Source of the DNA: a virus
Lineage: Duplodnaviria; Caudoviricetes
Virus record (IMG/VR): IMGVR_UViG_3300020043_004017
Location: 1-36,323 of that record
DNA length: 36,323 nucleotides
Strand: one strand, 5' to 3'
This document shows positions 2,357 through 36,323 of the stretch, piece by piece. The position numbers and the translations under genes were made by a program. How positions within the stretch are numbered: position 1 is the first letter of the stretch; each line of letters starts with the position of its first letter. The notes below the pieces were generated by a model. The model ran no database searches. It was given only the letters and a program-made list of their open reading frames with translations, and was not told where the DNA came from.

Positions 2357-3739
2357 ATGGCAAAAAATAGAATACTAATGGCGTGGGATGTTTTAACAAA
2401 TCCCAATAAAAACTATTTTAACGAGGCTTTATACAAATTAATAGGCGGGTTAACTCAAACTTATAATCCTACTTTTGAAACTCTTATAACCAAAGGGTAT
2501 GGGGATAATCCTGATGTTAACGCTATTATCAACCAAATGGCGTCCAAGACAACCGCCGTGCCTTATTGCATAAAAAAAATAGATGATGAAGATTCATTAA
2601 AGAAAATCAAACGTTATCCAATTAATACCACTTTCCAACAAAAACGAGAAATAAAGAAACTGCAATTAAAGGCGTACGAAACAGACACGGAAATGCCTAT
2701 GCCTTTAGAACGTCCAAATCCAAATCAAACTTGGAACGATATTCTATTTTTGTATAAAGTTTATTTGAAAGTATGCGGAAATGTTTATTTGTATAAAATG
2801 TTTCCTTTAGAGGGTATGAATGCAGGACAACCGATGCAATTGTATATTTTACCGTCCCATTGGGTACAAATTGTTTTAAAAGGGAATTCAAATATTTTAG
2901 GGCTTGAAAATCCTATCGATTACTACATAATGGAACAAGGAAATCAATTTGTTAAATTTCCTGCTGAGAATATTATTCATATCAAACGTGCAAATCCTTT
3001 CTACAATCAAAGCGGCTCGCATTTATACGGATACAGCGAATTAATGGCAGCTATACGAAATATTAATAGCTCCAACAGTTTCACAGATACAAATGTAAAA
3101 ACATCTCAAAATAGCGGGGTTTATGGATTTATACACGCTGGAGATGGCGCAACACCATTGACACAAGAACAAGCAAAAGATCTAAAAGAGCGTTTGGTCG
3201 ATATGGATAATTCAAGTGAGAAACTATCTAATATTGCTGGAGCATCTGGCAAACTTGGATTTACTAGAATTTCATTGACAACCGATGAATTAAAACCATT
3301 TGACTTTCTAAGTAATGATAGACGCACACTATGCAACTGTTTAAACTGGCCTATTGATTTATTGAATGAAGAAAGAAGCGGAACAGGTTTTGGAGTTGAT
3401 GGAGTTATTGAAGCACGTAAACGAGCTATCACCGACAATATCAAACCTGATTTAGATTTGTTTGCAGCTTCGTTTAACAAAGAATTTATACAGAAATTCA
3501 AAGGATATGAAAATACAGAACTGGATTTTGATATTACTGAATTGCCCGAAATGCAAACGGATATGGAAACTATGTCTAAATGGGTAAATGCAGTTCCATT
3601 AACTTTAAATGAACGTAGGGAAGTTTTCAATTATGAGGAGGTAGATGATGAAATGATGAATGAGATTTATATTCCTAATGGAATAATTAACATTAATGAT
3701 CCGAGCGTAACCGATATGCAATCAAATGGACAAGCTTAG
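2357..3739 (+). CDS. Portal protein (HK97 family)
   Basis: LERPNPNQT, GNVY, IIHIK, LYGYS, TLNERR motifs; follows terL. Confidence 0.92.
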   Translation: MAKNRILMAWDVLTNPNKNYFNEALYKLIGGLTQTYNPTFETLITKGYGDNPDVNAIINQMASKTTAVPYCIKKIDDEDSLKKIKRYPINTTFQQKREIKKLQLKAYETDTEMPMPLERPNPNQTWNDILFLYKVYLKVCGNVYLYKMFPLEGMNAGQPMQLYILPSHWVQIVLKGNSNILGLENPIDYYIMEQGNQFVKFPAENIIHIKRANPFYNQSGSHLYGYSELMAAIRNINSSNSFTDTNVKTSQNSGVYGFIHAGDGATPLTQEQAKDLKERLVDMDNSSEKLSNIAGASGKLGFTRISLTTDELKPFDFLSNDRRTLCNCLNWPIDLLNEERSGTGFGVDGVIEARKRAITDNIKPDLDLFAASFNKEFIQKFKGYENTELDFDITELPEMQTDMETMSKWVNAVPLTLNERREVFNYEEVDDEMMNEIYIPNGIININDPSVTDMQSNGQA

Positions 3740-6743: not shown

Positions 6744-7170
6744 TTTAGATCAAGCTAAATTATACTTGAAAGTTGATGCGTTACAAACTGAAACGGATAA
6801 CGAAATTACAAGTATGATAAATAGCTCTTTGTCGTTTATCGAAAAACGTACAGGGCACCATTTTAAAACAAAGAACAAAACTTTTTATTCGTGTGCTTTA
6901 GTAAATAGTGTGATTGTTTATGATTATCCAATTATTGATGCTCCAGCAGGAACACAAGCAAGACAGCTTAATTCTGTTGTGCCAACAGTTGATGGTTCGG
7001 TTGTTTTAGAACTTGGATACGCTTCTTTAGATGATATTCCTAGTGAATTAATAGATGCCGCTTTGCAAATCATTAAAGTATGGTTTTATGAAAGCGAAAA
7101 ACAAGAAAATACTTCATTGATACCTTTATCGGTATTGCAAGCAATTGATGCTAATAGACGATTTATATGA
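6718..7170 (+). CDS. Head-tail connector (gp6/gp15-like)
   Basis: SL.QAK.YLKVD....D..I..MI; IP.EL..A.L. Confidence 0.85.
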   Translation: MTTYLDVISLDQAKLYLKVDALQTETDNEITSMINSSLSFIEKRTGHHFKTKNKTFYSCALVNSVIVYDYPIIDAPAGTQARQLNSVVPTVDGSVVLELGYASLDDIPSELIDAALQIIKVWFYESEKQENTSLIPLSVLQAIDANRRFI

Positions 7171-7349
7171 GCAAGCAAAAAGAAAAAGAATTTAAGTTGT
7201 TTGGAATTATTATTTATGTTCAATATTTTTTCTATCACTTTGGAATAGCAATTGACTATGAAAGATATTCTACATATCGTAATATCTCTATATTATTGCC
7301 TTTTGTTGTGTTTGCTTTTGAGTTTCCTATAAAAGAAAAAATAAAATGA
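7167..7349 (+). CDS. Small hydrophobic/aromatic hypothetical protein
   Basis: 60 aa with ATGA overlaps at both ends. Confidence 0.55.
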   Translation: MSKQKEKEFKLFGIIIYVQYFFYHFGIAIDYERYSTYRNISILLPFVVFAFEFPIKEKIK

Positions 7350-7672
7350 TAGCCAGAAAATACACAAAAGCAATAGGAATTTGGAAAACTACAACCGTAC
7401 CAGATGGATATGGTGGTAACACGGTAACTACTGCTTTGGTTTATTCAGTATGGGCAAATGTAGTGACTAAAAAAGCATATCGACAAAATGAGAACGGTCA
7501 AAATGATAATTTTGTTCAAACCATTTTTACCATTAGAAACAGATATGATGTTGATTTAAATGTAGAAGAAAATTTCATAAAATACAACGGATTAATTTAT
7601 AATATCGATTCTATTTTAAACAAGGATTTGAATAATATTGATATTGAAATATATGGAACTCAAAGGACTTGA
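7346..7672 (+). CDS. Head closure / head-tail adaptor (SPP1 gp16-like)
   Basis: PDGYGG, VWANV, FTIR, YNG..YNI. Confidence 0.85.
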   Translation: MIARKYTKAIGIWKTTTVPDGYGGNTVTTALVYSVWANVVTKKAYRQNENGQNDNFVQTIFTIRNRYDVDLNVEENFIKYNGLIYNIDSILNKDLNNIDIEIYGTQRT

Positions 7673-8081
7673 CAAAGTTGTAGCTAATTTACGTAAATAC
7701 GGCAAAGAAGCGGAAAAAGATATAGAAGATGCTACTCAGGTAGCGGCCAGAAATATTGAGCTTTATGCAAAAAGTACGGTTGCAGCTAACTTTGGTAAAT
7801 TAGGACAATCTATACAGGCTAAACAAGAAGATAAAACACATTGGACTATTGAAGCTGGCGGAACAGTTGCTCCTTATGCTGCTTATGTAGAATTTGGAAC
7901 AGGTGGTTTAGTTCAAGTGCCAAATGAATTAAAAGAGCAGGCTTGGTTGTTTAAAGGCAAAGGAATTAAAGAGGTTAATTTAAGAGCAAGACCTTATCTT
8001 TATCCATCTTTATTGAGAGGGCGCAAAGAATATTTAAAAGCATTAAAAGACTTATTAAAAGATTATGGTAAATCCAAATAA
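7653..8081 (+). CDS. HK97 gp10-like tail completion protein
   Basis: KGLD, G.L..SI, YAAYVEFGT, ARPYLYP; ATG 7653 preferred over TTG 7638. Confidence 0.85.
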   Translation: MELKGLDKVVANLRKYGKEAEKDIEDATQVAARNIELYAKSTVAANFGKLGQSIQAKQEDKTHWTIEAGGTVAPYAAYVEFGTGGLVQVPNELKEQAWLFKGKGIKEVNLRARPYLYPSLLRGRKEYLKALKDLLKDYGKSK

Positions 8082-8466
8082 ATATATTCGAAAAGCTATT
8101 TATGACGCTGTTAATGCAACTTATCCGTGCTTTGATACACAAGTTACTGGGAAGCTAAACCCAACTCAATACGTCATTATATCAACACAAGATAAAGAGG
8201 ATATTAATCCAAATAAATGCGGCCACAGGTGGGAAGTAGCTACTTTATTGGATTTAGTTTGCATCTACAACGGTGCTGGGAATGTCGGCAGCCGTGTTGC
8301 TAATGATGATATGGAAAATGCTATTTTAGGACTAATTGCAAATGTTCAAATATCAGGATTTACAGTATTAAATCGAGTATATGAATTTCCATCTAATTTA
8401 GACACAAGCACATCGACACAAACAGTTTATAGAAATTTTATCCGTTTAGTGTTAACATTGGAATAA
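8065..8466 (+). CDS. Tail terminator protein
   Basis: Size and position between gp10 and tail tube; P.QYVII motif. Confidence 0.65.
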   Translation: MVNPNKYIRKAIYDAVNATYPCFDTQVTGKLNPTQYVIISTQDKEDINPNKCGHRWEVATLLDLVCIYNGAGNVGSRVANDDMENAILGLIANVQISGFTVLNRVYEFPSNLDTSTSTQTVYRNFIRLVLTLE

Positions 8467-8503
8467 TTTAATTATATTTACATAAAATTTAAAACTTACT
8501 ATT

Positions 8504-8947
8504 ATGAGCATCAAAGGCGAAAAAGGAATTATCTACATTTATACAGGTTCGGCCTATAAGCCAGTAGCTTGTTTAACTTCAAACAGTTTAAATACAACTG
8601 TTTCAATGATTGAAAGTCAAACAAAATGTTATCCGGGCGTTGTTAAGAAAACAGCAGGTACATTTAGTTATACAATCGATGCAGAAGGAGAATACATCGA
8701 CACTACGACAGTAGGAGGTGATACTGCCAAACAATCTCACGATGCGTTGTTTTTGCTACAACAAGCTAAAACAAAAGTAGATTGGAAACTTGACACTAAT
8801 ATTGACGATGCTACATCTGTAAAATATTTTGGAAGCGGTTATTTAACTGATTTGAGCGCAACATTTGGAAGTGGTGACGAAGTTACAACATTTAGCACAA
8901 CCATTGATGGAGATGGAGCAATTGTATTAACTGATCCTCACGCCTGA
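8504..8947 (+). CDS. Major tail tube protein (TP901-1-like)
   Basis: IKG...IYI, ACLTSNSL, YFGSGYLTDL, TFS.TI.GDG. Confidence 0.85.
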   Translation: MSIKGEKGIIYIYTGSAYKPVACLTSNSLNTTVSMIESQTKCYPGVVKKTAGTFSYTIDAEGEYIDTTTVGGDTAKQSHDALFLLQQAKTKVDWKLDTNIDDATSVKYFGSGYLTDLSATFGSGDEVTTFSTTIDGDGAIVLTDPHA

Positions 8948-9005
8948 ACTAGCGTTTTCAATAGTGTTTTTAGCAGTGAATTTGCTTAACCTTAAATAAA
9001 ACAAA

Positions 9006-9455
9006 ATGACAAATACAGCATTAAAGGCGCAGATTGACAGCCAAATTACAAATGAAACGACCCCAGCAGGAATAACTCCTACAGATGTAGGAATTAATTT
9101 AAAATCGATTGTTGACTATGTAGATCAAGAAACAGGAGGTACAAGCGCATCAGTAACACTAAGCGCAACACCTTCGGAATTAACGAATAAAATAACTTCT
9201 TGTAGTTTTACTGGAGGTGTCGCTTATCTGCCTGCAGTCACAAAAATAGGTACAGAAATGTATGTAATTGCAGTTTCAAATAATATTGAAGTTCGTGCAA
9301 ATGTATCCAACACGTCTAAAATGTTTGAAACATTTAATACTTTTGTCGCTAACGTTGTATTAACACAATACCAAATGTATAGATTTATTTATATTGGATT
9401 TGGTACAGGATCAGGAGGCTCAGTAGATGGATATTGGAAAGCAGAATTATTATAG
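9006..9455 (+). CDS. Tail-associated decoration / short fibre-like protein
   Basis: N-terminal QI.NET..AGITP..VG..L motif, beta-rich C-terminus; between tube and chaperones. Confidence 0.45.
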   Translation: MTNTALKAQIDSQITNETTPAGITPTDVGINLKSIVDYVDQETGGTSASVTLSATPSELTNKITSCSFTGGVAYLPAVTKIGTEMYVIAVSNNIEVRANVSNTSKMFETFNTFVANVVLTQYQMYRFIYIGFGTGSGGSVDGYWKAELL

Positions 9456-9456
9456 T

Positions 9457-9813
9457 ATGAGAAAAATAAACTTATTCATAGGCAATGAATACCGAGATTT
9501 CCATTTCGGGCTTGGATTCTTGGGTAATCTTTTGGAAAAAGAGGGCTTAATGGTTCATCAAATTGATGAAAAGATTAAAGAAAATCCATTTAAATGGGTG
9601 CCTTTGATTATGTTTTATTCGGCTACTTTTGCATATACTCGTAAAAATGAAAACGCTCCTTTTGACGCTTTCGATGTTTCAGAATGGATTGATGGTTTAG
9701 AACCAGACAGTACGGTAATTGTTGATTTCTTTGAAGCATTTAGAAACTCTTTACAAAAAGATGTCCCTGCTCAACAAGAAGAACAAACTAAAAAAAAAGT
9801 GACGAAAAAATAA
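9457..9813 (+). CDS. Tail assembly chaperone (gpG-like)
   Basis: Position; ends in A-run slippery site; ATG 9457 preferred. Confidence 0.75.
   Translation: MRKINLFIGNEYRDFHFGLGFLGNLLEKEGLMVHQIDEKIKENPFKWVPLIMFYSATFAYTRKNENAPFDAFDVSEWIDGLEPDSTVIVDFFEAFRNSLQKDVPAQQEEQTKKKVTKK
9790..9798 (+). other. Predicted -1 ribosomal frameshift site (A AAA AAA)
   Basis: A9 run; -1 frame open from 9792 to 10133. Confidence 0.7.
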
Positions 9814-10133
9814 ACTGGAGCGAAGATGTGATATCATTCGCTTTAGGCGAACTTAAATGTCCTGATTTGGATTTCGTTTACGATATGACGTGGGCAGAAT
9901 TTCAAATCAGGCTTTTTAGTTATAAAAGACAGGATTTATACAAATGGCAAATGTTGAGAGAAATGATGTGGACTTCATATATTGCACCTCATCAAGACCC
10001 TAAAAAGATGGTAAAAAGAAAAGAAAGTTTCTTACCTTTGAAAGGGGATAAAAAAGCAATAGCAAGCGTTACACAAGAGCATAAAGATAATTTTATAAAA
10101 GCATTCCAAAAATGGCAACAGGAAACAAGTTAG
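9792..10133 (+). CDS. Tail assembly chaperone gpT-like frameshift extension
   Basis: -1 frame relative to gpG; YDMTWAEF motif; directly precedes tape measure. Confidence 0.7.
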   Translation, partial: KKSDEKINWSEDVISFALGELKCPDLDFVYDMTWAEFQIRLFSYKRQDLYKWQMLREMMWTSYIAPHQDPKKMVKRKESFLPLKGDKKAIASVTQEHKDNFIKAFQKWQQETS

Positions 10134-11905
10134 AAGTAGGTATTGGAGCAGATATATCTGAGTTAAAATCAGGTATTCAAGAAGCTGTTATTGTTTTAGA
10201 GAAATTAAGACAACAAAAATCTGCTAACTTAAAGGTAGGCTTAGACGTTTCTGATTTGAATAAACAAATTGCAGCCGCTAAATCTAATTTATTAGGACTT
10301 CAAAAACAATTTTCTGCAACTTCTCCTGCTGTTGATAAAATGGCTAAAAGCACGGCCAACGGATCAAATGCTTTAATGCAGTTTTCAAGAATAGCACAAG
10401 ACGCTCCTTATGGTATTATTGGTATTGGAAACAACATTACGGCGACTGCTGAAAGTTTTTCTTATTTAAAGCAACAAACAGGATCTACAGGTGGCGCATT
10501 AAAAGCTTTAGCGAGTTCTTTAATGGGTACTGGGGGTATTTTGCTGGGAATATCTTTGCTTACAACAGGGCTTACTCTGTTGAGTCAAAGCGGATTGACT
10601 GTTGGCGATGTTATCGATAAAATTACAGGTAAGTTTGATGAATTTGGCGGGGCTATTAAAAAAGCAAGTGAAGAAGCTGTAAAAGCAACCTCAGGAGAAA
10701 TATTTGGATTAAAAGCTTTAGTCAGTGCAGCACAAAATAAAGCCTTATCTGATAAAGATAGATTGATTGCGGTTGAAAATTTACAAAAACAATATCCAGG
10801 TTATTTTGGCAATTTGTCTAAAGAACAAATAATGACCTCTAATTTAACAGGGGTTGTAAATGAACTTACAACGGCTTTATTAAATAGAGCAATTGCCGAA
10901 AAATTAGCGAGTGCGTCTGCCGACATTCAATTAAAAGTTTTTGCTGCAAATGCTAAATTAGTTAAGCAAAAAAATGAAACATTAAAACTCGAACAACAAT
11001 TAACAACTTTAAGAGCAGGTGCTACAAATGACGAGCTTTATGCAGATAATCAAAAATTTATTGCTGTAACCAATTTAAATGGACTTATTAATAATTCAAA
11101 AGATGCCGAAAATCAATATAGACAAGAAATAATTTCAGGAACAAAAGCACTTGAAAGAAGGCAAAATGTAATAAATCAATTAACAGCATCGTCTTTAAAA
11201 TTAGATCAAAAAGCACCACCAAAGGTAAAGCAAACATTTAACACTCCGCAAGTTACAGGTGTAGTTTCTTTATTAAGTCCAGCTCCATTAGTTATTCCTG
11301 CTGTTAATTCTGAAATATTTAAAAAGTCATTAGATAATTTAGCTCCATTAGTATCGGAAGCGTCTATTAATATGCAATTAGCGTTATTAGATTTTAATGA
11401 TAGAGCATCTCAAATTATTAACGGTGCGTTAATTGATACTTTTGCTGGAATTGGCAACGCAATAGGTAACGCATTAGCAACAGGCGGAAATGTATTAAAT
11501 GCTTTAGGAGCTTCTTTATTAGGTGCTTTAGGAAGTGTTTTAACTTCTATGGGTAAAATGGCAATTGAAATAGGTGTAGGATTGTTAGCTGTAAAATTTG
11601 CTTTGAAAACATTGAATCCTTATGCTGCTATTGCTGCTGGGATTGGATTAGTTGCTTTAGGTGCTATATTTAGCTCTAAGTCTGCATCTATTGGCAATTC
11701 AATAGGTGGTGGTGGGAATACTTCAACATCAACAGGCTCAGGAGCGAATAATAATAGTTTTTCAAGCGGTGGATTTAGTTCGGCATCATCAAACGGTGGA
11801 ACAGTTGTTTTTGAAATAGCAGGACAAAAATTGATAGGTGTTTTAAGCAATACTTTGAATAGCAATAAGCGTTTAGGGGGTTCTACTAATTTAGTAATTG
11901 GATAA
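10112..11905 (+). CDS. Tape measure protein
   Basis: LEVGIGAD start, IAQDAPYG motif, Ala/Gly-rich helical and hydrophobic segments. Confidence 0.88.
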   Translation: MATGNKLEVGIGADISELKSGIQEAVIVLEKLRQQKSANLKVGLDVSDLNKQIAAAKSNLLGLQKQFSATSPAVDKMAKSTANGSNALMQFSRIAQDAPYGIIGIGNNITATAESFSYLKQQTGSTGGALKALASSLMGTGGILLGISLLTTGLTLLSQSGLTVGDVIDKITGKFDEFGGAIKKASEEAVKATSGEIFGLKALVSAAQNKALSDKDRLIAVENLQKQYPGYFGNLSKEQIMTSNLTGVVNELTTALLNRAIAEKLASASADIQLKVFAANAKLVKQKNETLKLEQQLTTLRAGATNDELYADNQKFIAVTNLNGLINNSKDAENQYRQEIISGTKALERRQNVINQLTASSLKLDQKAPPKVKQTFNTPQVTGVVSLLSPAPLVIPAVNSEIFKKSLDNLAPLVSEASINMQLALLDFNDRASQIINGALIDTFAGIGNAIGNALATGGNVLNALGASLLGALGSVLTSMGKMAIEIGVGLLAVKFALKTLNPYAAIAAGIGLVALGAIFSSKSASIGNSIGGGGNTSTSTGSGANNNSFSSGGFSSASSNGGTVVFEIAGQKLIGVLSNTLNSNKRLGGSTNLVIG

Positions 11906-13714
11906 ATGGAAAAATATTTTATAATTTTTGGAGACTATTTTTTAAGCATCAAGCAAAAAGACTATTTAGGACAATCTACCGAAATTCACGGTGCAATAGA
12001 GTTGACGAAGGGTGATGTTGATACCGTTTTAGAGCCAATTCGAGGCACGGGATTAAATTTAGCTTTAGAAGCAAATCCAAACATAACTTTTGATGAATTT
12101 GCTTTGGCAGATGAAAAAACCTATTCTGTACAGCTTAGCAAAAGCAATAATGTGATTTTCAACGGATGGATAAAACCTGACGGCACTCAACAATCTTATG
12201 TCAATAACGAATGGCTTGTAAATATAGAAGTGGTTGATTATTTAGGAGCAATGAAAGATTTATCTTTTGTAAAATCTGACGGTTATCATTTTACGGGTAA
12301 AATGTCATTTTACGAAGTCATAAAAGCGTGCTTGGATAGAACTGGCCTTTTGATGCCAATTTATTCAAGCATAAATCTATCTTATACAAGTTATTCAGGA
12401 ACAAATATTTTAAAGGATGTTTATGTAAATGCTTCAAGATATTACAAGCAAGACAATGACACTTTAATGGATTGCAACGAGGTTTTGACTTCTATTTTAA
12501 ATATATTCTCCGCAGTAGTAACACAAGAAAATGGCATTTGGTGGATATACAGACCGACTGACTTAAAACCTAATACAGTATTTATAAATAACACTTTAGA
12601 TACTTTGGCAACTTTAAAAACTGATTTTGTTTTAGGCTCGCAAATCGATAATTTTTACCCTCATCATTGTGGAGCAAATCAACAGATTGAAGTCAAAGGC
12701 GCAATTAGTGCCTATCGTTTAAAATATGAACACGGTTTCTTAGATGGATTCATTCTAAATAAAGAACTAGTGCATAGTAATACAATGTCATTTGATAATT
12801 GGACTGTAAACCCTACAAACGCAGGATTGATATTTAATGATCCTTTGGATTTATCAGGTCTTAAGATATATTCAGAAGAAGGAGATGTTTTTAAAGAAAT
12901 AATGACTTCAAATTCATTTTCAGTAACGTCTGGAGCAATTTTAAATGTAAAAGCTAATTTATTTGTAAATTTTTCTAAATTTAGATTTAGATTTAGACTG
13001 AAAAGAAGTGACGGGAAGTATTGCAACAAAAAAGGAGAGTGGACCACAAATCCAAATGATTATTTTGAAGGCACTTGTGGTTCTATTTCTACTCCTTCTG
13101 CAACATCTGATTTTAAATTCGTAACAAATGTAGTTGATAACGACTGCGACATAACATTAACTATTTTAAAACCTGTATGGTATTTATTTATAGGTGGTGT
13201 TATCCCTACTTTGACGGAAATAACTAAAATAGATGTTTCAGACGCATCACAAACAGAATCAGGAATAGTAGGCACTTTCTACACAGTATCCCGAAAATTG
13301 CCACCGAGTTCTATTGTTAAAGAAAATCAAACCGTATTCAATGGAGATAGTACTTCATTATTAATTGGCTCGCTTTATAAAGCAGACCAAACGACTTTGA
13401 CAGAAACTTGGAACAGACAAGGATTCACAGAAAACAAACCAATTCTATTAATTAGTGCCGAAGATGATTTAAGAGTTCAAAGAAATGCTATTAAAATTTT
13501 TAGTGGGGATATTTTTGGTAAATTAAATTACGTATCTTTGATAAATATAAATGGGTTGCTTGGTAAATTTATGTTTACTAATTATCGCTATAATTTGAAT
13601 ACAAACATTTTGTCAGCAAAATTAACCCAATTGTATCAGGACGAGGTTGGCGATATTGAAAGCCAAATTACACCTGACTATGGAAATACAATCAAACCGA
13701 CAATAAAGGGATAA
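11906..13714 (+). CDS. Tail tip / baseplate hub protein
   Basis: 602 aa beta-rich protein directly after tape measure. Confidence 0.65.
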   Translation: MEKYFIIFGDYFLSIKQKDYLGQSTEIHGAIELTKGDVDTVLEPIRGTGLNLALEANPNITFDEFALADEKTYSVQLSKSNNVIFNGWIKPDGTQQSYVNNEWLVNIEVVDYLGAMKDLSFVKSDGYHFTGKMSFYEVIKACLDRTGLLMPIYSSINLSYTSYSGTNILKDVYVNASRYYKQDNDTLMDCNEVLTSILNIFSAVVTQENGIWWIYRPTDLKPNTVFINNTLDTLATLKTDFVLGSQIDNFYPHHCGANQQIEVKGAISAYRLKYEHGFLDGFILNKELVHSNTMSFDNWTVNPTNAGLIFNDPLDLSGLKIYSEEGDVFKEIMTSNSFSVTSGAILNVKANLFVNFSKFRFRFRLKRSDGKYCNKKGEWTTNPNDYFEGTCGSISTPSATSDFKFVTNVVDNDCDITLTILKPVWYLFIGGVIPTLTEITKIDVSDASQTESGIVGTFYTVSRKLPPSSIVKENQTVFNGDSTSLLIGSLYKADQTTLTETWNRQGFTENKPILLISAEDDLRVQRNAIKIFSGDIFGKLNYVSLININGLLGKFMFTNYRYNLNTNILSAKLTQLYQDEVGDIESQITPDYGNTIKPTIKG

Positions 13715-23538: not shown

Positions 23539-23620
23539 TAGGTATAACAGCGGCTACCACCCACCGCCAAAATCTCGCTTGTACTTAGGCGGCAGTGGTA
23601 GCCGCAGGACGTTGGGCAAA
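23539..23620 (+). repeat. attC-like site 2
   Basis: TAGGTATAAC; perfect 11-bp arms 23550-23560 / 23595-23605 plus inner CCGCC/GGCGG; GTTGGGC. Confidence 0.7.
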
Positions 23621-23650
23621 ATGCCGAAGCATTTGCCCAACCAGCGGCAC

Positions 23651-24116: not shown

Positions 24117-24291
24117 AATATTCAGTTTTAAAAACCCACTACATCTGCTAACACAGGTTTGCAAAAATGGCAAGTTTAGGTTTAATTTAAAGTTGTTTTT
24201 GTGTCTGTAAGATTTGTTATTACTCGAAAGTTCAGTCCTTAATTTCCCTGAACATCGGTTAGCGTCCGCCGTTGGGCAAAATGCCGAAGCA

Positions 24292-24543
24292 TTATAAATA
24301 CGAATTCAAAATTTCTGTTTTTTCTTTTTGATCTTCATAACTTAAATGTCCAAAAGTTGTAAATGTCTGCTCAATTTCCGCAAGTTTTTTTAATTGCGAT
24401 TTCATTTTTTTAACCTTAGCTAAAAGCTCCTGATTCCATTCCTGCTGCTCTTCCAATTCAGTTTGCGGAGTGCATTCTATTTCATTGATGTTTGCAGGAT
24501 TGTCATCTCTAAATGTTCCTTCAATGTAGTCGTCTGGGTTCAT
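24292..24543 (-). CDS. Hypothetical protein
   Basis: 83 aa in tightly packed minus-strand operon. Confidence 0.65.
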   Translation of the reverse strand: MNPDDYIEGTFRDDNPANINEIECTPQTELEEQQEWNQELLAKVKKMKSQLKKLAEIEQTFTTFGHLSYEDQKEKTEILNSYL

Positions 24544-24752: not shown

Positions 24753-25165
24753 AATTTCTCAAATTTAATAATTACACTCATTCCGTTTTCTTTTGCTTTT
24801 TGTTGCAAGGCTTCGATTTCTTTAGAATAGTCTGGTTTGGGTTTAAGGCGATATTCTAAATTTTTATTAGGAACATCAAACCATTCTCCATCTATTGTTC
24901 TAAATTGCATTTCGCTTGATTTCCAAACCTTCTCAACCTCAACACCACACGCTTCTAAAAATATATCAGCGTTGAATGTTTCGTAAGTTTCTTTATAGTA
25001 TGGAATTGACACTTGAATATTAGAAACTAATGCGTCATAATTAAAATCAGTAACTAAATAAGGACATTCATTAAATGAAGTTAAACTTTTAATTTCAACA
25101 GGAATCCTATCCTTAATACTATCAAACTGTTCTTGTGTGCATTTCATTGCGATTGGTCTTTTCAT
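24749..25165 (-). CDS. Hypothetical protein
   Basis: 138 aa with coupled overlaps. Confidence 0.7.
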   Translation of the reverse strand: MKRPIAMKCTQEQFDSIKDRIPVEIKSLTSFNECPYLVTDFNYDALVSNIQVSIPYYKETYETFNADIFLEACGVEVEKVWKSSEMQFRTIDGEWFDVPNKNLEYRLKPKPDYSKEIEALQQKAKENGMSVIIKFEKL

Positions 25166-25449
25166 AATTTTTCAATATTAAATGTTAATTTCATTCCTTT
25201 TTCGGCTGCTTTTTCAACAGCAAACTTAATAGCATTTTCAATTTTGCCATCGTAGAAAAACGGCAACTCGATATTATTAGCCTTCAAGATTTCTTCCATT
25301 TTTTTTAAGGTTGGCGAAAACTCTTCTGACTGCCATCTACCAATTGCAGATATAGAGATATCGTTTAATACTTGTTTTTGTTCTTTTAATTCGATTCGTT
25401 TTTGCATTAATACCTTGCAAAAGTTCTGCTGTAAACTGTATTTGTTCAT
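25162..25449 (-). CDS. Cro/CI-like HTH regulator
   Basis: ISISAIGRWQ.....PTL...EIL XRE-like pattern; first gene of divergent operon. Confidence 0.65.
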   Translation of the reverse strand: MNKYSLQQNFCKVLMQKRIELKEQKQVLNDISISAIGRWQSEEFSPTLKKMEEILKANNIELPFFYDGKIENAIKFAVEKAAEKGMKLTFNIEKL

Positions 25450-25574
25450 AGTGTTTATGTTTTAATTGTTAAGCAAAGATACACATATTTTCACGCTATA
25501 TGTAGTTTTAACATAATTTTAACATTTTTATTTATTTGTTTGATTTATCTTTGCTTCATAAAAAATCATAAACT
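25450..25574. promoter_or_regulatory. Divergent promoter region
   Basis: TATCTTTG on minus (25474-25481) and plus (25546-25553); TTTTAACAT twice in between. Confidence 0.65.
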
Positions 25575-32088: not shown

Positions 32089-33366
32089 ATGAAACTAAGA
32101 GACTATCAAATAAAACTATCCAACGAAGCAACCGAAATATTAAAACAAAAGTTAATAGTTTGTTTATGTATGGAAGTGCGAACAGGGAAAACTTTAACCG
32201 CTTTGCAAACTGCTCAAAATTACGGTGCTAAATCGGTGCTATTTGTTACTAAAATCAAAGCATTCAGCTCTATTCAATGGGATTACGATCAAATTGAGTT
32301 TTCTTTTAAGTTAACGATTATTAACAAAGAATCTTTACACAAGATAGATGATACTTTTGATTTGGTTATTTATGATGAGTTTCACGGATTTGCAGCATAT
32401 CCGAAGCCTTCGGTTTATCAAAAGTTAGCACGTGATAAATACAGTCATTTACCAATGATTTTATTATCAGGAACTCCAACGCCAGAGAGTCATTCACAAT
32501 GGTTCCATAGTTTTCAATTATCCGATAACTCCCCATTCAAAGAATATTCGAATTTTTATAAATGGGCGAAGGATTTTGTGAATGTAAAGATTAAACATTT
32601 AGGATATGCGCAAGTGAACGACTATTCAGAAGCCGACATTAAGCATATTAATCGCAGGATTAAATATTATGTTTTGACTTTTACCCAGAAAGAGGCTGGA
32701 TTTACCTCAACAGTAAATGAAATGATGCTGGAGGTTGAAATGAAACCTATCACTTATCAATTAGTAGAACGATTAAAAAAAGATTTGGTTGTTAAAAATT
32801 CAAAAGGACAGTTAATTTTAGCCGATACAGGAGTGAAATTACAACAAAAGATACATCAACTTTATTCAGGTACTTGCAAATTTGAGGACGGCACAAGTAA
32901 GGTTATAGACTACTCAAAATCCGAGTTCATACGTGACAACTTTTCTGAACACAAAATAGGTATCTTTTATAAATTTAAAGAAGAATGGAACGCCCTTAAA
33001 GAAACTTTAGGCGATAAATTAACAAATGATTTAGATGAGTTTAACTCAACAGATAAATGGATAGCTTTGCAGATAACATCAGGACGTGAAGGTATAAGTT
33101 TGAAATCTGCAAAATATTTAGTCTATTATAATATTGACTTCTCAGCGGTTAGTTATTGGCAAAGCCGTGACCGATTAACTACTATGGACAGAAAAGAAAA
33201 TGATATTTTTTGGATATTCGCAAAAGGAGGGATTGAAGAAAAAATATATAGAACTGTTCTAAATAAAAAAGATTATACTCTTAACATTTTTAAAAAAGAT
33301 TATGGAATCAAAAATTCAAAAGAAGATTATAACACAACTCGAAGCCAACGGTTTCTTCGTAGTTAA
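32089..33366 (+). CDS. SF2 (SNF2/DEAD-like) helicase
   Basis: LRDYQ, RTGKT, DEFH, LSGTP, EGISL, QS.DR. Confidence 0.88.
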   Translation: MKLRDYQIKLSNEATEILKQKLIVCLCMEVRTGKTLTALQTAQNYGAKSVLFVTKIKAFSSIQWDYDQIEFSFKLTIINKESLHKIDDTFDLVIYDEFHGFAAYPKPSVYQKLARDKYSHLPMILLSGTPTPESHSQWFHSFQLSDNSPFKEYSNFYKWAKDFVNVKIKHLGYAQVNDYSEADIKHINRRIKYYVLTFTQKEAGFTSTVNEMMLEVEMKPITYQLVERLKKDLVVKNSKGQLILADTGVKLQQKIHQLYSGTCKFEDGTSKVIDYSKSEFIRDNFSEHKIGIFYKFKEEWNALKETLGDKLTNDLDEFNSTDKWIALQITSGREGISLKSAKYLVYYNIDFSAVSYWQSRDRLTTMDRKENDIFWIFAKGGIEEKIYRTVLNKKDYTLNIFKKDYGIKNSKEDYNTTRSQRFLRS

Positions 33367-33580
33367 AATGATTAAGACTAATAAAAACGGTATTCCAGAT
33401 TTATTAGCGGTCAAAGAAAATAGGACAATATTTATCGAAGTTAAACAAGAACACGGAAAATTATCAGAAATTCAAAAACATCGTATAAATGAAATCAGAT
33501 CAAAACAAATCGAGTGTTATACGTGGACAGGTTTCGGAATCAATTTTGATAAAGGAGACCCGTATATTTTTAAACTTTGA
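33302..33580 (+). CDS. VRR-NUC nuclease
   Basis: E..IQ, GIPDL, FIEVK, LS..Q. Confidence 0.88.
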   Translation: MESKIQKKIITQLEANGFFVVKMIKTNKNGIPDLLAVKENRTIFIEVKQEHGKLSEIQKHRINEIRSKQIECYTWTGFGINFDKGDPYIFKL

Positions 33581-33776
33581 AACTCAAACATCAAAGTTAG
33601 GCAGACCGTTCCGATTATCAGGCACACGTAAAAATTCACAACTTCCATCAAAATGGATTGACAAATCAGAAAGATGGCATTGGATTCATTCATTCAAGTA
33701 TTTAGATGAGCAGGGTGGATTTTTTGAAATAGAGATAGGATATAATAATGAATTTATAAAATTAGAGAAGGTATGA
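33489..33776 (+). CDS. Hypothetical protein (start uncertain)
   Basis: 3' part fills the gap; ATGA coupling to next gene. Confidence 0.5.
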   Translation: MKSDQNKSSVIRGQVSESILIKETRIFLNFETQTSKLGRPFRLSGTRKNSQLPSKWIDKSERWHWIHSFKYLDEQGGFFEIEIGYNNEFIKLEKV

Positions 33777-34072
33777 AAACAATATCCGAAGCGGCTAAAA
33801 TCCTAAATATTGAATCTGATAAACTAAGGAAAATAATCAAAAACGAAGGCTTTGTTTTAACAAAAGGAATTAGAGCTAATATTGCGCATTTAACCGAACA
33901 TCAGCTATCATTTTTAATCGAAAAATATAAAGTGGAATACATATACCTTGAAAGCAAAATGAATCAACCTGAGCTATTAAATGAGGCTCCGCCTATTTAT
34001 TCTAAACAAAAAATGATTGAGCAAGGTTTTATTATTCCTAAGAAAAAGTTTCAATCCACGGGGCGGGATTAA
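33773..34072 (+). CDS. HTH DNA-binding protein
   Basis: TISEAAKILNI....LRKI. Confidence 0.6.
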   Translation: MKTISEAAKILNIESDKLRKIIKNEGFVLTKGIRANIAHLTEHQLSFLIEKYKVEYIYLESKMNQPELLNEAPPIYSKQKMIEQGFIIPKKKFQSTGRD

Positions 34073-34127
34073 GTCAACGGGTCACTATTACGTTGACGTA
34101 TCAGGTTTCAATCCACGGGTCGGGATT
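34048..34127 (-). CRISPR. CRISPR-like minimal unit: two 23-nt repeats and a 34-nt spacer
   Basis: AATCCCG(A/C)CCCGTGGATTGAAAC twice (34105-34127, 34048-34070), 1 mismatch. Confidence 0.4.
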
Positions 34128-34294
34128 TTATAAACATAGATCATAGACTTCGCCCAAGTAGGTAACTTTTTACTGGGTGCGGTTTGACTTTTAACACTAT
34201 TTTCAGTTAATCCAATAATCAAAGCAATGTCACGGTTTTTTAAACCGAGTTGCTTTTTAAGTTCTTTGAAATCTTCGTGAGTATAATTTTTCAT
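34088..34294 (-). CDS. Small HTH protein (Aca-like)
   Basis: FKELKKQLGL...DIA.IIGLT..SV.......LP.W. Confidence 0.7.
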   Translation of the reverse strand: MKNYTHEDFKELKKQLGLKNRDIALIIGLTENSVKSQTAPSKKLPTWAKSMIYVYKIPTRGLKPDTST

Positions 34295-34681
34295 TTATAT
34301 TTTTGATTTTAATTTAACAACCAAGCAATTAGCCATATATTCAATCATTTCTGATTCATTTTTAAACTCTAATCTATCTTCTAATGCAGATTCTGAAAAA
34401 TCTCCATCTTCATCAATTCCCCAAGTAGTTGAAAATTCATTATCTGAATAATTAAAATCATCAAATGATTCTAATTGAATTTCGTAATTTTTAGAGTTGG
34501 CCGTCATTGCATCGTGACTTGCTAATCTTGCTCCTAAACAGCTATAAACATCGTTTAAGTCAGAATTACTATAGCAAGCTATAAGCAAATAAGCTGCTTC
34601 ACTTTTATCTGATTGACAAACATTAAAATCAAAATCTAATTGACTTGCTGCTTTTTCTAAAATTTGTGTAAATGCGTTCAT
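34295..34681 (-). CDS. Acidic hypothetical protein (Acr candidate)
   Basis: 128 aa, D/E-rich, abuts HTH gene. Confidence 0.65.
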   Translation of the reverse strand: MNAFTQILEKAASQLDFDFNVCQSDKSEAAYLLIACYSNSDLNDVYSCLGARLASHDAMTANSKNYEIQLESFDDFNYSDNEFSTTWGIDEDGDFSESALEDRLEFKNESEMIEYMANCLVVKLKSKI

Positions 34682-34707
34682 AATTCCTATTGTTTGATTT
34701 TGTTATA

Positions 34708-34762
34708 CAAATATAAGTAACATATTTATTACTCGCAAGTAAAAAGCAATTTATTTATTACT
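34708..34762 (-). promoter_or_regulatory. Promoter with palindromic operator
   Basis: TATATTTG (34708-34715, minus); AGTAA-N8-TTACT 34716-34733; TATTTATTACT repeated at 34723 and 34752. Confidence 0.55.
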
Positions 34763-34924
34763 TTTTTGTTGTTTAGAATAAATATAAATTATAAAATAAA
34801 GTTTATTTAGTTTAAAATTTTGTATATTTGTGTAGTTAATAATTGCGCTATTAACAACTAAAAAAAAATAATCTAAAGTTAAGCCGAGAGGGCGCAATCC
34901 TCGAAGCTTAACTTTTTTTGTATT

Positions 34925-35272
34925 ATGGAAATATGGAAGCCAGTAAAAGACTTTGCTAATTATGAAGTTTCTAATTTAGGAAATGTAAAAAGTTTAAGTA
35001 GAAAAGTATGGAACGGAAGAGGATTTTTCTATTCTAAAGAATTAATTTTAAAAAAATCAATTGACACGAAAGGATATTCTTTTATTCGTTTATGTAAAGA
35101 TGGAATGCCTAAAAGCAGAACCATACATCAATTAGTAGCAGAAGCTTTCTTAAATCATATACCGTGTAAACATAAATTAGTTGTGAATCACAAAGATTTT
35201 AACAAACAAAACAATTGTATTGATAATTTAGAAGTGGTTACAAATAGACAAAATAAAAATCAAAAAACATAA
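34925..35272 (+). CDS. NUMOD4-HNH homing endonuclease, possibly 3'-truncated
   Basis: EIWK.V..F..YEVSNLG.V; IH.LVA.AF; VNHKD.NK.NN...NLE. Confidence 0.88.
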   Translation: MEIWKPVKDFANYEVSNLGNVKSLSRKVWNGRGFFYSKELILKKSIDTKGYSFIRLCKDGMPKSRTIHQLVAEAFLNHIPCKHKLVVNHKDFNKQNNCIDNLEVVTNRQNKNQKT

Positions 35273-35482
35273 ATGCCTAGTTTAAACGCAACAACAACCG
35301 CAGTTTTTAATTCTGTTGGAATTGACGCCGCGACAATTTACGCGACTTTTGTTAATTTGATTGGAACGGCGGTTAGTTTTATGCTTTGGATGATTCAGGT
35401 TTCTTGGCCGTTCCTCCTTGGCATAGCGTTTATCTACTTGATGTATCGTTTGGCTCACAAATTTATGGGTTTCGGTAGATAA
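35273..35482 (+). CDS. Inovirus major coat (pVIII)-like protein
   Basis: 69 aa, amphipathic N-terminus, TM helix, basic C-terminus. Confidence 0.55.
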   Translation: MPSLNATTTAVFNSVGIDAATIYATFVNLIGTAVSFMLWMIQVSWPFLLGIAFIYLMYRLAHKFMGFGR

Positions 35483-35490
35483 GCAAAACA

Positions 35491-35517
35491 AAAACGCCGG
35501 CACCAGCCAGCGATTTT
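35491..35517. terminator. Hairpin after pVIII-like gene
   Basis: CGCCGGC-acca-GCCAGCG flanked by A and T runs, 1 mismatch. Confidence 0.4.
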
Positions 35518-35552
35518 GTAGGTTTTACAATTTTATTTTATTTCTTTTTAGA

Positions 35553-36323
35553 ATGTATGTCAAGTTTTTAATTGGTTTAATAATAGTGGTGGCTACTTTC
35601 CTTTTGCCGTCTGTGGTTTTGGCTTTTGATGTTTGTAGCCCTATAAATCCTAGTGTTCCTTGTTCGGTTTCTGGTATGGATATGGACTCTGTTTTAGGAA
35701 ATAATTATATTAGAGTTTTTTATAATTCAAATTTTACAATTTTATCTAAAGACGGCACGATTATTCAAGGAAATCCTGTTGGTTATGAGGGTTATATCAC
35801 GGCTTCTTCAACAAAAGCATATTTTTATATAGATTACCCTGATTTTCCCAATACTTGGGTTTTTGATGATGGGGGTTTGGAAGGTCAGGGTTCTTATGCG
35901 AATGTTGGTTATATTGATGACTTGCCTTTTGTTGGGGTTTCTGGTTTTTTTCAGGCAGGGGTTGGTTTTATTAATGTTTTAAATTCTAATTTTACTCGCA
36001 TAGATTCTGTTTATCCGGCTAGTGGTTCTACTTCGGCGACTTCTACTGATTTTACTTTTAGTGTTTCGGGTTATATTTCTGGCGATGATTGGACTTCTGG
36101 GGACGCTTTGATTTCTTTAAATTATTATCTTGGAGCTTCTGGCGGTTTGGAGGATGGTTTTACTCCTTTAGGTATGTCTTGGGTTGTAGATGACTCTCTT
36201 TCTGGTTCTTTTGAGTGGGAAAATCCGACCTCTGGGTATTTTTCTTATTCTACTACAACCTCAATTTTATCCGAAGGCAAGTATTCTATGTATGTTAAAA
36301 TTGAGGTTCCGAGATTTTTTGGG
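35553..36323 (+). CDS. Inovirus pIII/attachment-like secreted protein, 3'-truncated (not in ORF track)
   Basis: 257 open codons to window end; signal peptide MYVKFLIGLIIVVATFLLPSVVLA; S/T/G-rich; strong T at codon position 3. Confidence 0.6.
   Translation, partial: MYVKFLIGLIIVVATFLLPSVVLAFDVCSPINPSVPCSVSGMDMDSVLGNNYIRVFYNSNFTILSKDGTIIQGNPVGYEGYITASSTKAYFYIDYPDFPNTWVFDDGGLEGQGSYANVGYIDDLPFVGVSGFFQAGVGFINVLNSNFTRIDSVYPASGSTSATSTDFTFSVSGYISGDDWTSGDALISLNYYLGASGGLEDGFTPLGMSWVVDDSLSGSFEWENPTSGYFSYSTTTSILSEGKYSMYVKIEVPRFFG

Follow-up and report, generated by a model that had tools for sequence, protein, structure and literature searches.

Introduction

In acr-aca operons such as acrIF1-aca1 of JBD30 and acrIF8-aca2 of ZF40, a small variable gene stands upstream, a small helix-turn-helix (HTH) gene comes last, and the operon has its own promoter with two inverted repeats; Aca1 and Aca2 provide a precedent for autorepression (excerpts of PMC8633003). 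A second kind of phage element, Racr and Cracr, consists of short repeat-like sequences ending in a class 1 handle-like octamer. According to excerpts of PMC10651486, Racr candidates cluster with acr genes, and viral crlRNAs have degenerate repeats and short conserved spacers (excerpts of bioRxiv 10.1101/2024.10.29.618823). TIGR arrays alternate 8–12-nt repeats with 9–12-nt spacers in units of 36 nt; their repeats start with UG and end with CCA, and these motifs can diverge (excerpts of PMC12045711).

Here we analyse a phage locus for which a preliminary description had proposed a combined protein and RNA anti-defence function, with an acr-aca-like gene pair followed by a mimic of a type I-C repeat, spacer and repeat. 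All of the features named there are present where they were placed: the two repeats, the 34-nt spacer, a 128-aa acidic ORF, a 68-aa HTH gene, a promoter and a palindromic operator. The repeats do run into the 3′ ends of two genes, the HTH gene and a head-on 99-aa gene (33773-34072). Comparison with relatives upheld the protein half of the proposal, in that the architecture is acr-aca-like, with variable cargo, a conserved operator promoter and HTH gene, and an optional unit; the type I-C RNA mimic was not supported. To our knowledge, few anti-CRISPR proteins have been described for Flavobacterium phages, and literature searches joining Flavobacterium, phage, anti-CRISPR and helix-turn-helix returned unrelated matter only.

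Results

The phage and its likely host

The window analysed here is the whole of virus record G000, a linear sequence of 36,323 bp that is 97% complete. Its translations read as the gene set of a tailed phage, with terminase, portal, capsid, tape measure, lysin and replication genes, and its top terminase matches, at about 36% identity, include Cellulophaga, Parabacteroides and Flavobacterium phages; the phage is of Flavobacterium type. The first 680 bp of the window match the promoter side of the same cassette in the related contig L002, and the cassette therefore sits between replication and packaging genes.

Two observations concern the window apart from this locus. Positions 35273-36323 are probably foreign or mis-joined DNA: at the suspected chimeric junction, 35272/35273, the stop of an HNH gene abuts a new start and the strand becomes T-rich. 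The 69-aa hydrophobic protein encoded there, which we take to resemble a filamentous-phage coat protein or pilin, and the accompanying 257-aa open ORF gave no Pfam or NCBIfam match and no match in GenBank phages. An exact 24-nt duplicate lies at 23610-23633 and 24270-24293, in a leftward small-gene region.

Bacterial genomes were sampled around the Myroides genome G001, the centre of two family samples (401 and 301 genomes) and of a genus sample (251 genomes); Myroides is placed with Flavobacterium by GTDB. Cas9 scored over cut-off in 74 of the 251 genus genomes, Cas5 in 2 and Cas6 in 1, the class 1 counts being lower bounds because at least one I-B-like locus, in G439, escaped these two scans. 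That locus, L283 (G439:C81), lies at the end of a contig from a genome of the same genus and combines a type I-B-like array with cas4-, cas1- and cas2-like genes. Genome G630 carries a type II-C array of 88 spacers (L282, G630:C18, array 6801-12630), six of which match the related contig L168 with 0–2 mismatches. One of these six is also the spacer that nearly matches the cargo gene of the window (Table 1), and another G630 spacer matches L004 with 2 mismatches and L002 with 3, while reversed G630 spacers reach at best 8 mismatches against the window. These G630 matches link the phage group to a Cas9-bearing host genus, without naming the host.

An optional cassette with exchanged cargo

The locus is a cassette of about 730 bp that is optional at one site (features in Table 1). 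Contigs from two of the four sequencing runs examined (X1 and X2, from two studies) join position 2515 of L002 to position 3250, omitting 734 bp, and run X1 carries the filled allele alongside the empty one. The 734 bp absent from empty sites begin immediately ahead of the operators and run through the array to its last unit, and the X1 and X2 empty-site contigs have their loose ends at window position 34045, the cassette boundary. On the promoter side, the boundary in the window was left unfixed because the window diverges from L002 and X1 near 34768.

Table 1. Coordinates of the cassette features in the window, and cargo forms found behind the common promoter.
Feature	Position or locus	Strand	Remarks
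Distal inverted repeat GYAA-N8-TTRC, predicted operator	34746..34761	-	same position in 11/11 clade promoters
Proximal inverted repeat, predicted operator	34717..34732	-	between -33 TTG and -7 box; strict in 10/11 clade promoters
Bacteroidota-type promoter	34708..34738	-	TTG 34736-34738, 20 nt, -7 element TAnnTTTG 34708-34715
Cargo gene, 128-aa acidic alpha/beta protein, candidate counter-defence	34295..34681	-	pI 4.07
Near-match to type II-C spacer of G630	34607..34636	.	3 mismatches in 30, in cargo gene
HTH gene, 68 aa, predicted autorepressor	34088..34294	-	phrog_8898, E 3.6e-8
Array unit A	34103..34121	-	core + 12 nt ending in "handle"
Array unit B	34084..34102	-	degenerate core; HTH stop codon inside; 1–4 copies in relatives
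Array unit C	34065..34083	-	contains stop codon of head-on gene
Array unit D	34046..34064	-	end is cassette boundary of empty-site contigs
Head-on phage gene, 99 aa, weak excisionase-like HTH	33773..34072	+	last codons from array
Cargo 128 aa	window, L002		behind common promoter
Cargo 91 aa	L001		behind common promoter
Cargo 105 aa	L003, L005, L007, L159		behind common promoter
Cargo 114 aa	L004		behind common promoter
Cargo 112 aa	L006		behind common promoter
Cargo 149 aa	L139		behind common promoter

The cargo is exchanged, while the promoter before it and the HTH gene after it stay fixed. The 85 bp before the start codon are almost identical across the close clade, and the gene that follows differs. 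A single short contig from run X11 joins the promoter to the HTH gene with no cargo between them, which is weak evidence with 27 nt on its short side. In L166, L168, L171, L172 and L173, the 128-aa cargo precedes other small genes that appear by eye to be putative DNA-binding genes (those scanned gave no Pfam match), and the cargo therefore seems to move between regulators.

Several neighbouring arrangements were also seen. L008:1-760 is rearranged, its promoter and 105-aa cargo facing away from a headless HTH fragment with an array remnant. In Myroides pelagicus (L174:2917-5486), the family HTH follows small genes of no assigned function, with one operator copy; a conventional hairpin closes this operon, which faces an integrase-like gene. 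The cultured Flavobacterium phage 2A (L175:2064-2689) has two operator copies, a 92-aa gene and then the HTH gene, with no array. On the opposite promoter side, L001-L002, L006-L007 and L159 carry a second run of small variable genes, divergent from the cassette and ending in a different HTH family. At the L002 insertion point there is a palindromic motif, and it appears again at window 25505-25525 ahead of an HTH-like gene (region 25162-25525).

Promoter, operators and the HTH gene

The cassette promoter follows the Bacteroidota motif as given in excerpts of PMC10309648. The inverted repeat GYAA-N8-TTRC lies at -80 and -51 in the clade, with at least one copy in 11/11 promoters and both in 10/11; the whole window has six occurrences, two of them at the cassette promoter. 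It stands twice before the HTH operon of phage 2A and once before the Myroides operon, and a strict copy was found at none of the seven loci that carry the 128-aa gene in other settings. Only one of those seven, L170, has a distant family HTH (E 2.7e-9), and there a one-mismatch operator copy was read by eye. In four distant HTH loci, where the 130 bp preceding a single chosen gene were examined, the operator was not found. Viral contigs scanned by pattern gave six matches to the promoter, all in contigs already known, and 12 to the palindrome, seven of which are lone matches lacking an array. By these comparisons the operator motif travels with the HTH family and not with the cargo.

In the model of the 68-aa HTH protein (mean pLDDT 86.9), residues 6-56 form four helices and the tail is of low confidence; the folded core covers approximately residues 1-56, and the tail is encoded by the array. 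Its fold neighbours include many XRE-type HTH proteins, among them Aca1, Aca2 and Aca10 (E 1.0–1.8), all Foldseek matches having E above 0.001; by sequence, its top PDB match is Aca3 (E 0.13). Sequence search with the HTH protein found 10 viral loci, and profile searches found 12 metagenome loci, 14 viral loci (overlapping the first 10) and one genome locus; a 44% identical protein occurs in six GenBank records of F. psychrophilum phages. The conserved HTH gene sits downstream of variable small genes in its homologues' loci too. Because Aca1 and Aca2 set a precedent, we propose autorepression for this protein, which is likely to repress its own promoter.

The cargo and its possible role in counter-defence

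The 128-aa cargo protein has 92 homologues; in the profile search it has 15 representatives. Residues S24, S27, E28, Y31, R52 and H56 are invariant, and Y31, R52 and H56 remain so even in distant family members. Its structural model is confident (pLDDT 88.6). Foldseek against PDB and viral models gave no row at E<=0.001, the best being EF_1977 and an LPD-labelled phage protein; the best Z against VIA was 5.0, with none above, and the ESM Atlas returned unnamed clusters only, at 0.82–0.83, or nothing. These fold-search results show neither a new fold nor an absence of Acr kinship. The 105/114-aa cargo shares only an R-x-x-x-H motif with the 128-aa family (hhalign probability 10%). The L139 cargo matches ART-PolyVal at E 1e-5 and the L006 cargo at 0.008, both under the curated cut-off, and from these weak hits the two proteins may be ADP-ribosyltransferase-like. 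A kinship of cargo with PBECR RNases, an idea taken from excerpts of PMC5512222, found no supporting match.

We favour, with some reserve, the view that the swappable cargo counters host defence. If it targets CRISPR, type II-C is the more likely target than class 1. A less probable but still serious alternative is that the cargo serves host take-over or superinfection exclusion. In keeping with this, cargo proteins matched no known Acr or anti-defence protein in sequence, profile and fold searches, PADLOC models matched 0/10 proteins, and the host spacer targets the cargo gene as it would any other phage gene. It accounts less readily for the exchange of small, mostly acidic proteins (pI 4.0–5.4 in the clade) before a conserved HTH gene, or for the ART-like character of some cargo, given that AcrIF11 is an ART (excerpts of bioRxiv 10.1101/2024.08.26.609590).

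A conserved array of 19-bp units at the end of the cassette

Two 23-nt direct repeats, at 34048-34070 and 34105-34127, are identical at 22/23 positions and lie 57 nt apart from start to start; one such 23-nt repeat was found in 33001-36000 vs none in 20 shuffles. The preliminary description had read them as flanking a spacer. On the cassette strand, 34046-34121 divides into units A to D, four stretches of 19 bp that each begin with GACCCGT or a variant of it, and the 23-nt pair is the outer part of this array. Identity at lag 19 is 0.53, and over lags 12 to 29 this value was matched by 0/2000 shuffles. Repeat units also make up the 34-nt "spacer", which is nearly identical across phages, so that repeat, spacer and repeat give way to a 19-bp period with 2–5 units across relatives.

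At least two cores were present in 10 of the 26 HTH loci checked, counts that are not independent, since two related datasets supplied 8/10 array loci (L139, L148 and run X1 have other origins). The form ABCD occurs in L001-L005; L006 has five units, with B repeated, L007 three, and L139, L159 and L148 two, and L008 retains a remnant. Unit positions 1, 2, 5, 6, 7, 10, 14 and 15 agree in 37–39 of 39 units, the L008 remnant included. The array is 89–99% identical to that of the window in five relatives, vs 67–92% for third codon positions of the HTH gene, which suggests selection on the array sequence. Among 17 loci put through the shuffle test that brought out the 37-nt-spaced repeats described below, the short array of L139 and eight array-less loci gave nothing above shuffles.

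The window and each of the 10 array loci are met by a head-on gene, as are two of the 14 array-less loci with gene lists (L008 and L174); among the array loci this orientation is confounded with shared ancestry. Scanning viral contigs for two cores 19 bp apart gave 106 stretches, and for the unit B pattern 18, related to this array only where linked to the HTH gene. Three distant HTH-family loci have direct repeats of some 20 nt at their ends, with 37-nt spacing (L170:3482-3538, L142:2699-2756 and L146:2680-2734), and L170 also has a homologue of the 128-aa cargo. Four others, L009, L144, L174 and L175, lack such repeats.

In the literature searched we found nothing on 19-bp direct repeats in Flavobacterium phages, nor on the core motif as a phage repeat. 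The repeat and the word Flavobacterium are both absent from nine supplements of PMC10651486; supplements of the Cracr, Aca-family, vsgRNA and TIGRFinder preprints fell outside this scope and could list these loci.

What the array may do

The array is real, conserved and unexplained. Our leading suggestion, a tentative one held at somewhat under even confidence, is that proteins bind along its DNA at successive sites, which would then serve as a roadblock or end mark against head-on phage transcription. The array does not contain the operator palindrome. Its fixed 19-bp period, position-specific conservation and variable copy number resemble iteron-type or arm-type direct-repeat arrays, but here no cognate initiator or recombinase lies nearby, and the replication genes differ among the phages that carry the array.

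We consider it unlikely that the array works as RNA, its tandem weak hairpins serving as a two-way intrinsic terminator between the cassette and the head-on gene. The 88-nt region of the window folds with z -3.5 and that of L001 with z -2.6, the B/C stem is paired in 97.6% of cells, and T-runs follow unit D in several loci. However, the two-unit array of L139 is unfolded (z +0.9), L003, L005, L006 and L148 reach only z -0.3 to -1.4, covariation is absent, and a terminator scan gave no site at the array.

A little less likely again is a functionless origin, as a slippage-made minisatellite or a recombination scar at the insertion boundary. Copy number is variable, the shorter forms could be derived by loss between cores, the array ends at the cassette boundary, and the four repeat-less distant relatives would fit; set against this are the higher conservation of the array than of HTH third codon positions in 5/5 comparisons, its persistence beside several different head-on genes, and the 37-nt-spaced pairs that follow the distant members L170, L142 and L146.

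Under the mimic reading originally proposed for this locus, transcription of the operon would extend into the array, and processing of that RNA would yield a class 1 crRNA mimic (Racr or Cracr) able to sequester or redirect Cascade. The clustering of Racr candidates with acr genes and the degenerate repeats of viral crlRNAs speak for such a reading, as does the likeness to both in having a short repeat-like sequence with a class 1 handle-like octamer at its end, downstream of an acr-aca-like operon. In the window, the copies place a small stem before the handle, ATTGAA (the first six handle bases) is kept in 14/17 A/D units, and the G439 array missed by the Cas5/Cas6 scans ends in ATTGAAAT. 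Other details count against it. The full handle ATTGAAAC is exact in only 5/17 A/D units; the upstream handle unit is missing from 4/10 related arrays and the "spacer" unit B from a fifth, the "spacer" being composed of repeat units in any case; and in the six ABCD arrays 7/23 predicted pairs are broken in some sequence with none compensated, so that neither handle nor stem is conserved.

Nor was a matching host repeat found. No array of the repeat motif occurred in 401 family genomes at <=2 mismatches (<=2 matches per genome), and the I-C end GTGGATTGAAAC formed an array in 0/301 family genomes (at most three scattered copies), with Cas5 and Cas6 rare in the genus sample. Outside the handle, similarity to the G439 repeat falls short of significance, with scores as high reached by 231 and 54 of 500 shuffles. 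An Rfam search at E<=5 across 33500-35300 gave two unrelated weak rows and no CRISPR repeat family, and the best array score against 34 CRISPR repeats of the genus was reached by 32/100 shuffles. Spacer matches were no better than chance in six cas-bearing loci, and, within the genomes sampled, 60 Cas9/Cas2 loci showed neither similarity nor a spacer match beyond chance. The window contains no self-target, the best other match (21/34) being a shift of the array against itself by 19. In G630, a 12-nt match to the spacer fell in an unrelated gene and was reached by 47/1000 shuffles; an array beside Cas5 in G596 has an unrelated, GC-rich repeat; and a Cas9 guide mimic of the kind in excerpts of bioRxiv 10.64898/2026.06.01.729453 was not supported either, the array being no better than chance against genus repeats and Cas9/Cas2 loci. 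The locus thus differs from Racr and Cracr elements in its spacer, its varying copy number and a likely host that is mostly type II-C, and on these comparisons we judge a class 1 CRISPR RNA mimic improbable.

We would give equally little weight to a broader proposal, in which the HTH family marks Flavobacterium phage cassettes pairing a swappable counter-defence protein with a 3′ repeat RNA of 19/37–38-nt period, a guide or decoy for a non-class-1 RNA-guided system that is TIGR-like or undescribed; the distant loci L170, L142 and L146, too, carry repeat pairs with 37-nt spacing at their ends.

Least probable of all is a divergent TIGR-like short-guide RNA, or decoy, whose guide protein is encoded elsewhere: short repeats alternating with 12-nt stretches, a two-unit period of 38 nt (37-nt spacing in distant relatives) near 36 nt, and a phage location recall TIGR arrays (excerpts of PMC12045711 and bioRxiv 10.64898/2026.09.09.750476), but the parsed repeats are 7 nt, 2/4 start with TG and 0/4 end with CCA (box C), the three distinct 12-mers share four columns (84/20000 shuffles) and so are not independent spacers, no dual-spacer target beyond chance was found in 144 loci and the window, and no Nop (PF01798) or IS110 (PF02371) domain matched in G000, although these models may miss Tas proteins.

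Discussion

The locus can be read as a self-repressed counter-defence cassette that ends in iterated DNA sites where it meets head-on transcription, a reading that as a whole we hold to be evenly poised. Its parts differ in strength. Quite probably, the HTH-operon promoter would be expressed early and then shut off by an HTH dimer on the two inverted repeats, as with Aca1 and Aca2. That the small swappable cargo would counter host defence is somewhat more probable than the opposite, and the array as a set of protein-bound sites facing head-on transcription is the most tentative step.

Comparison with acr-aca operons supports a shared architecture: the cassette likewise has its own promoter with two inverted repeats, a small variable upstream gene and a terminal small HTH gene. 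It differs in that its HTH protein gave no significant match to a known Aca family, the operator is different, no cargo matched a known Acr, and the HTH gene ends in a variable 19-bp array. By analogy, the cassette would operate as acr-aca operons do, as a putative member of that class, and it offers a reasonable pool of candidates for counter-defence.

The array offers a more general lesson, in that a repeat, spacer and repeat with a good handle in one genome can dissolve into another repeat structure once relatives are compared. The cargo provides a short list for testing, which includes the two ART-like proteins and the 128-aa family, in which Y, R and H are invariant and for which fold searches gave no clear match. 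For Flavobacterium phages, where type II-C Cas9 is common, the HTH family together with its operator would serve as a guilt-by-association handle on counter-defence genes.
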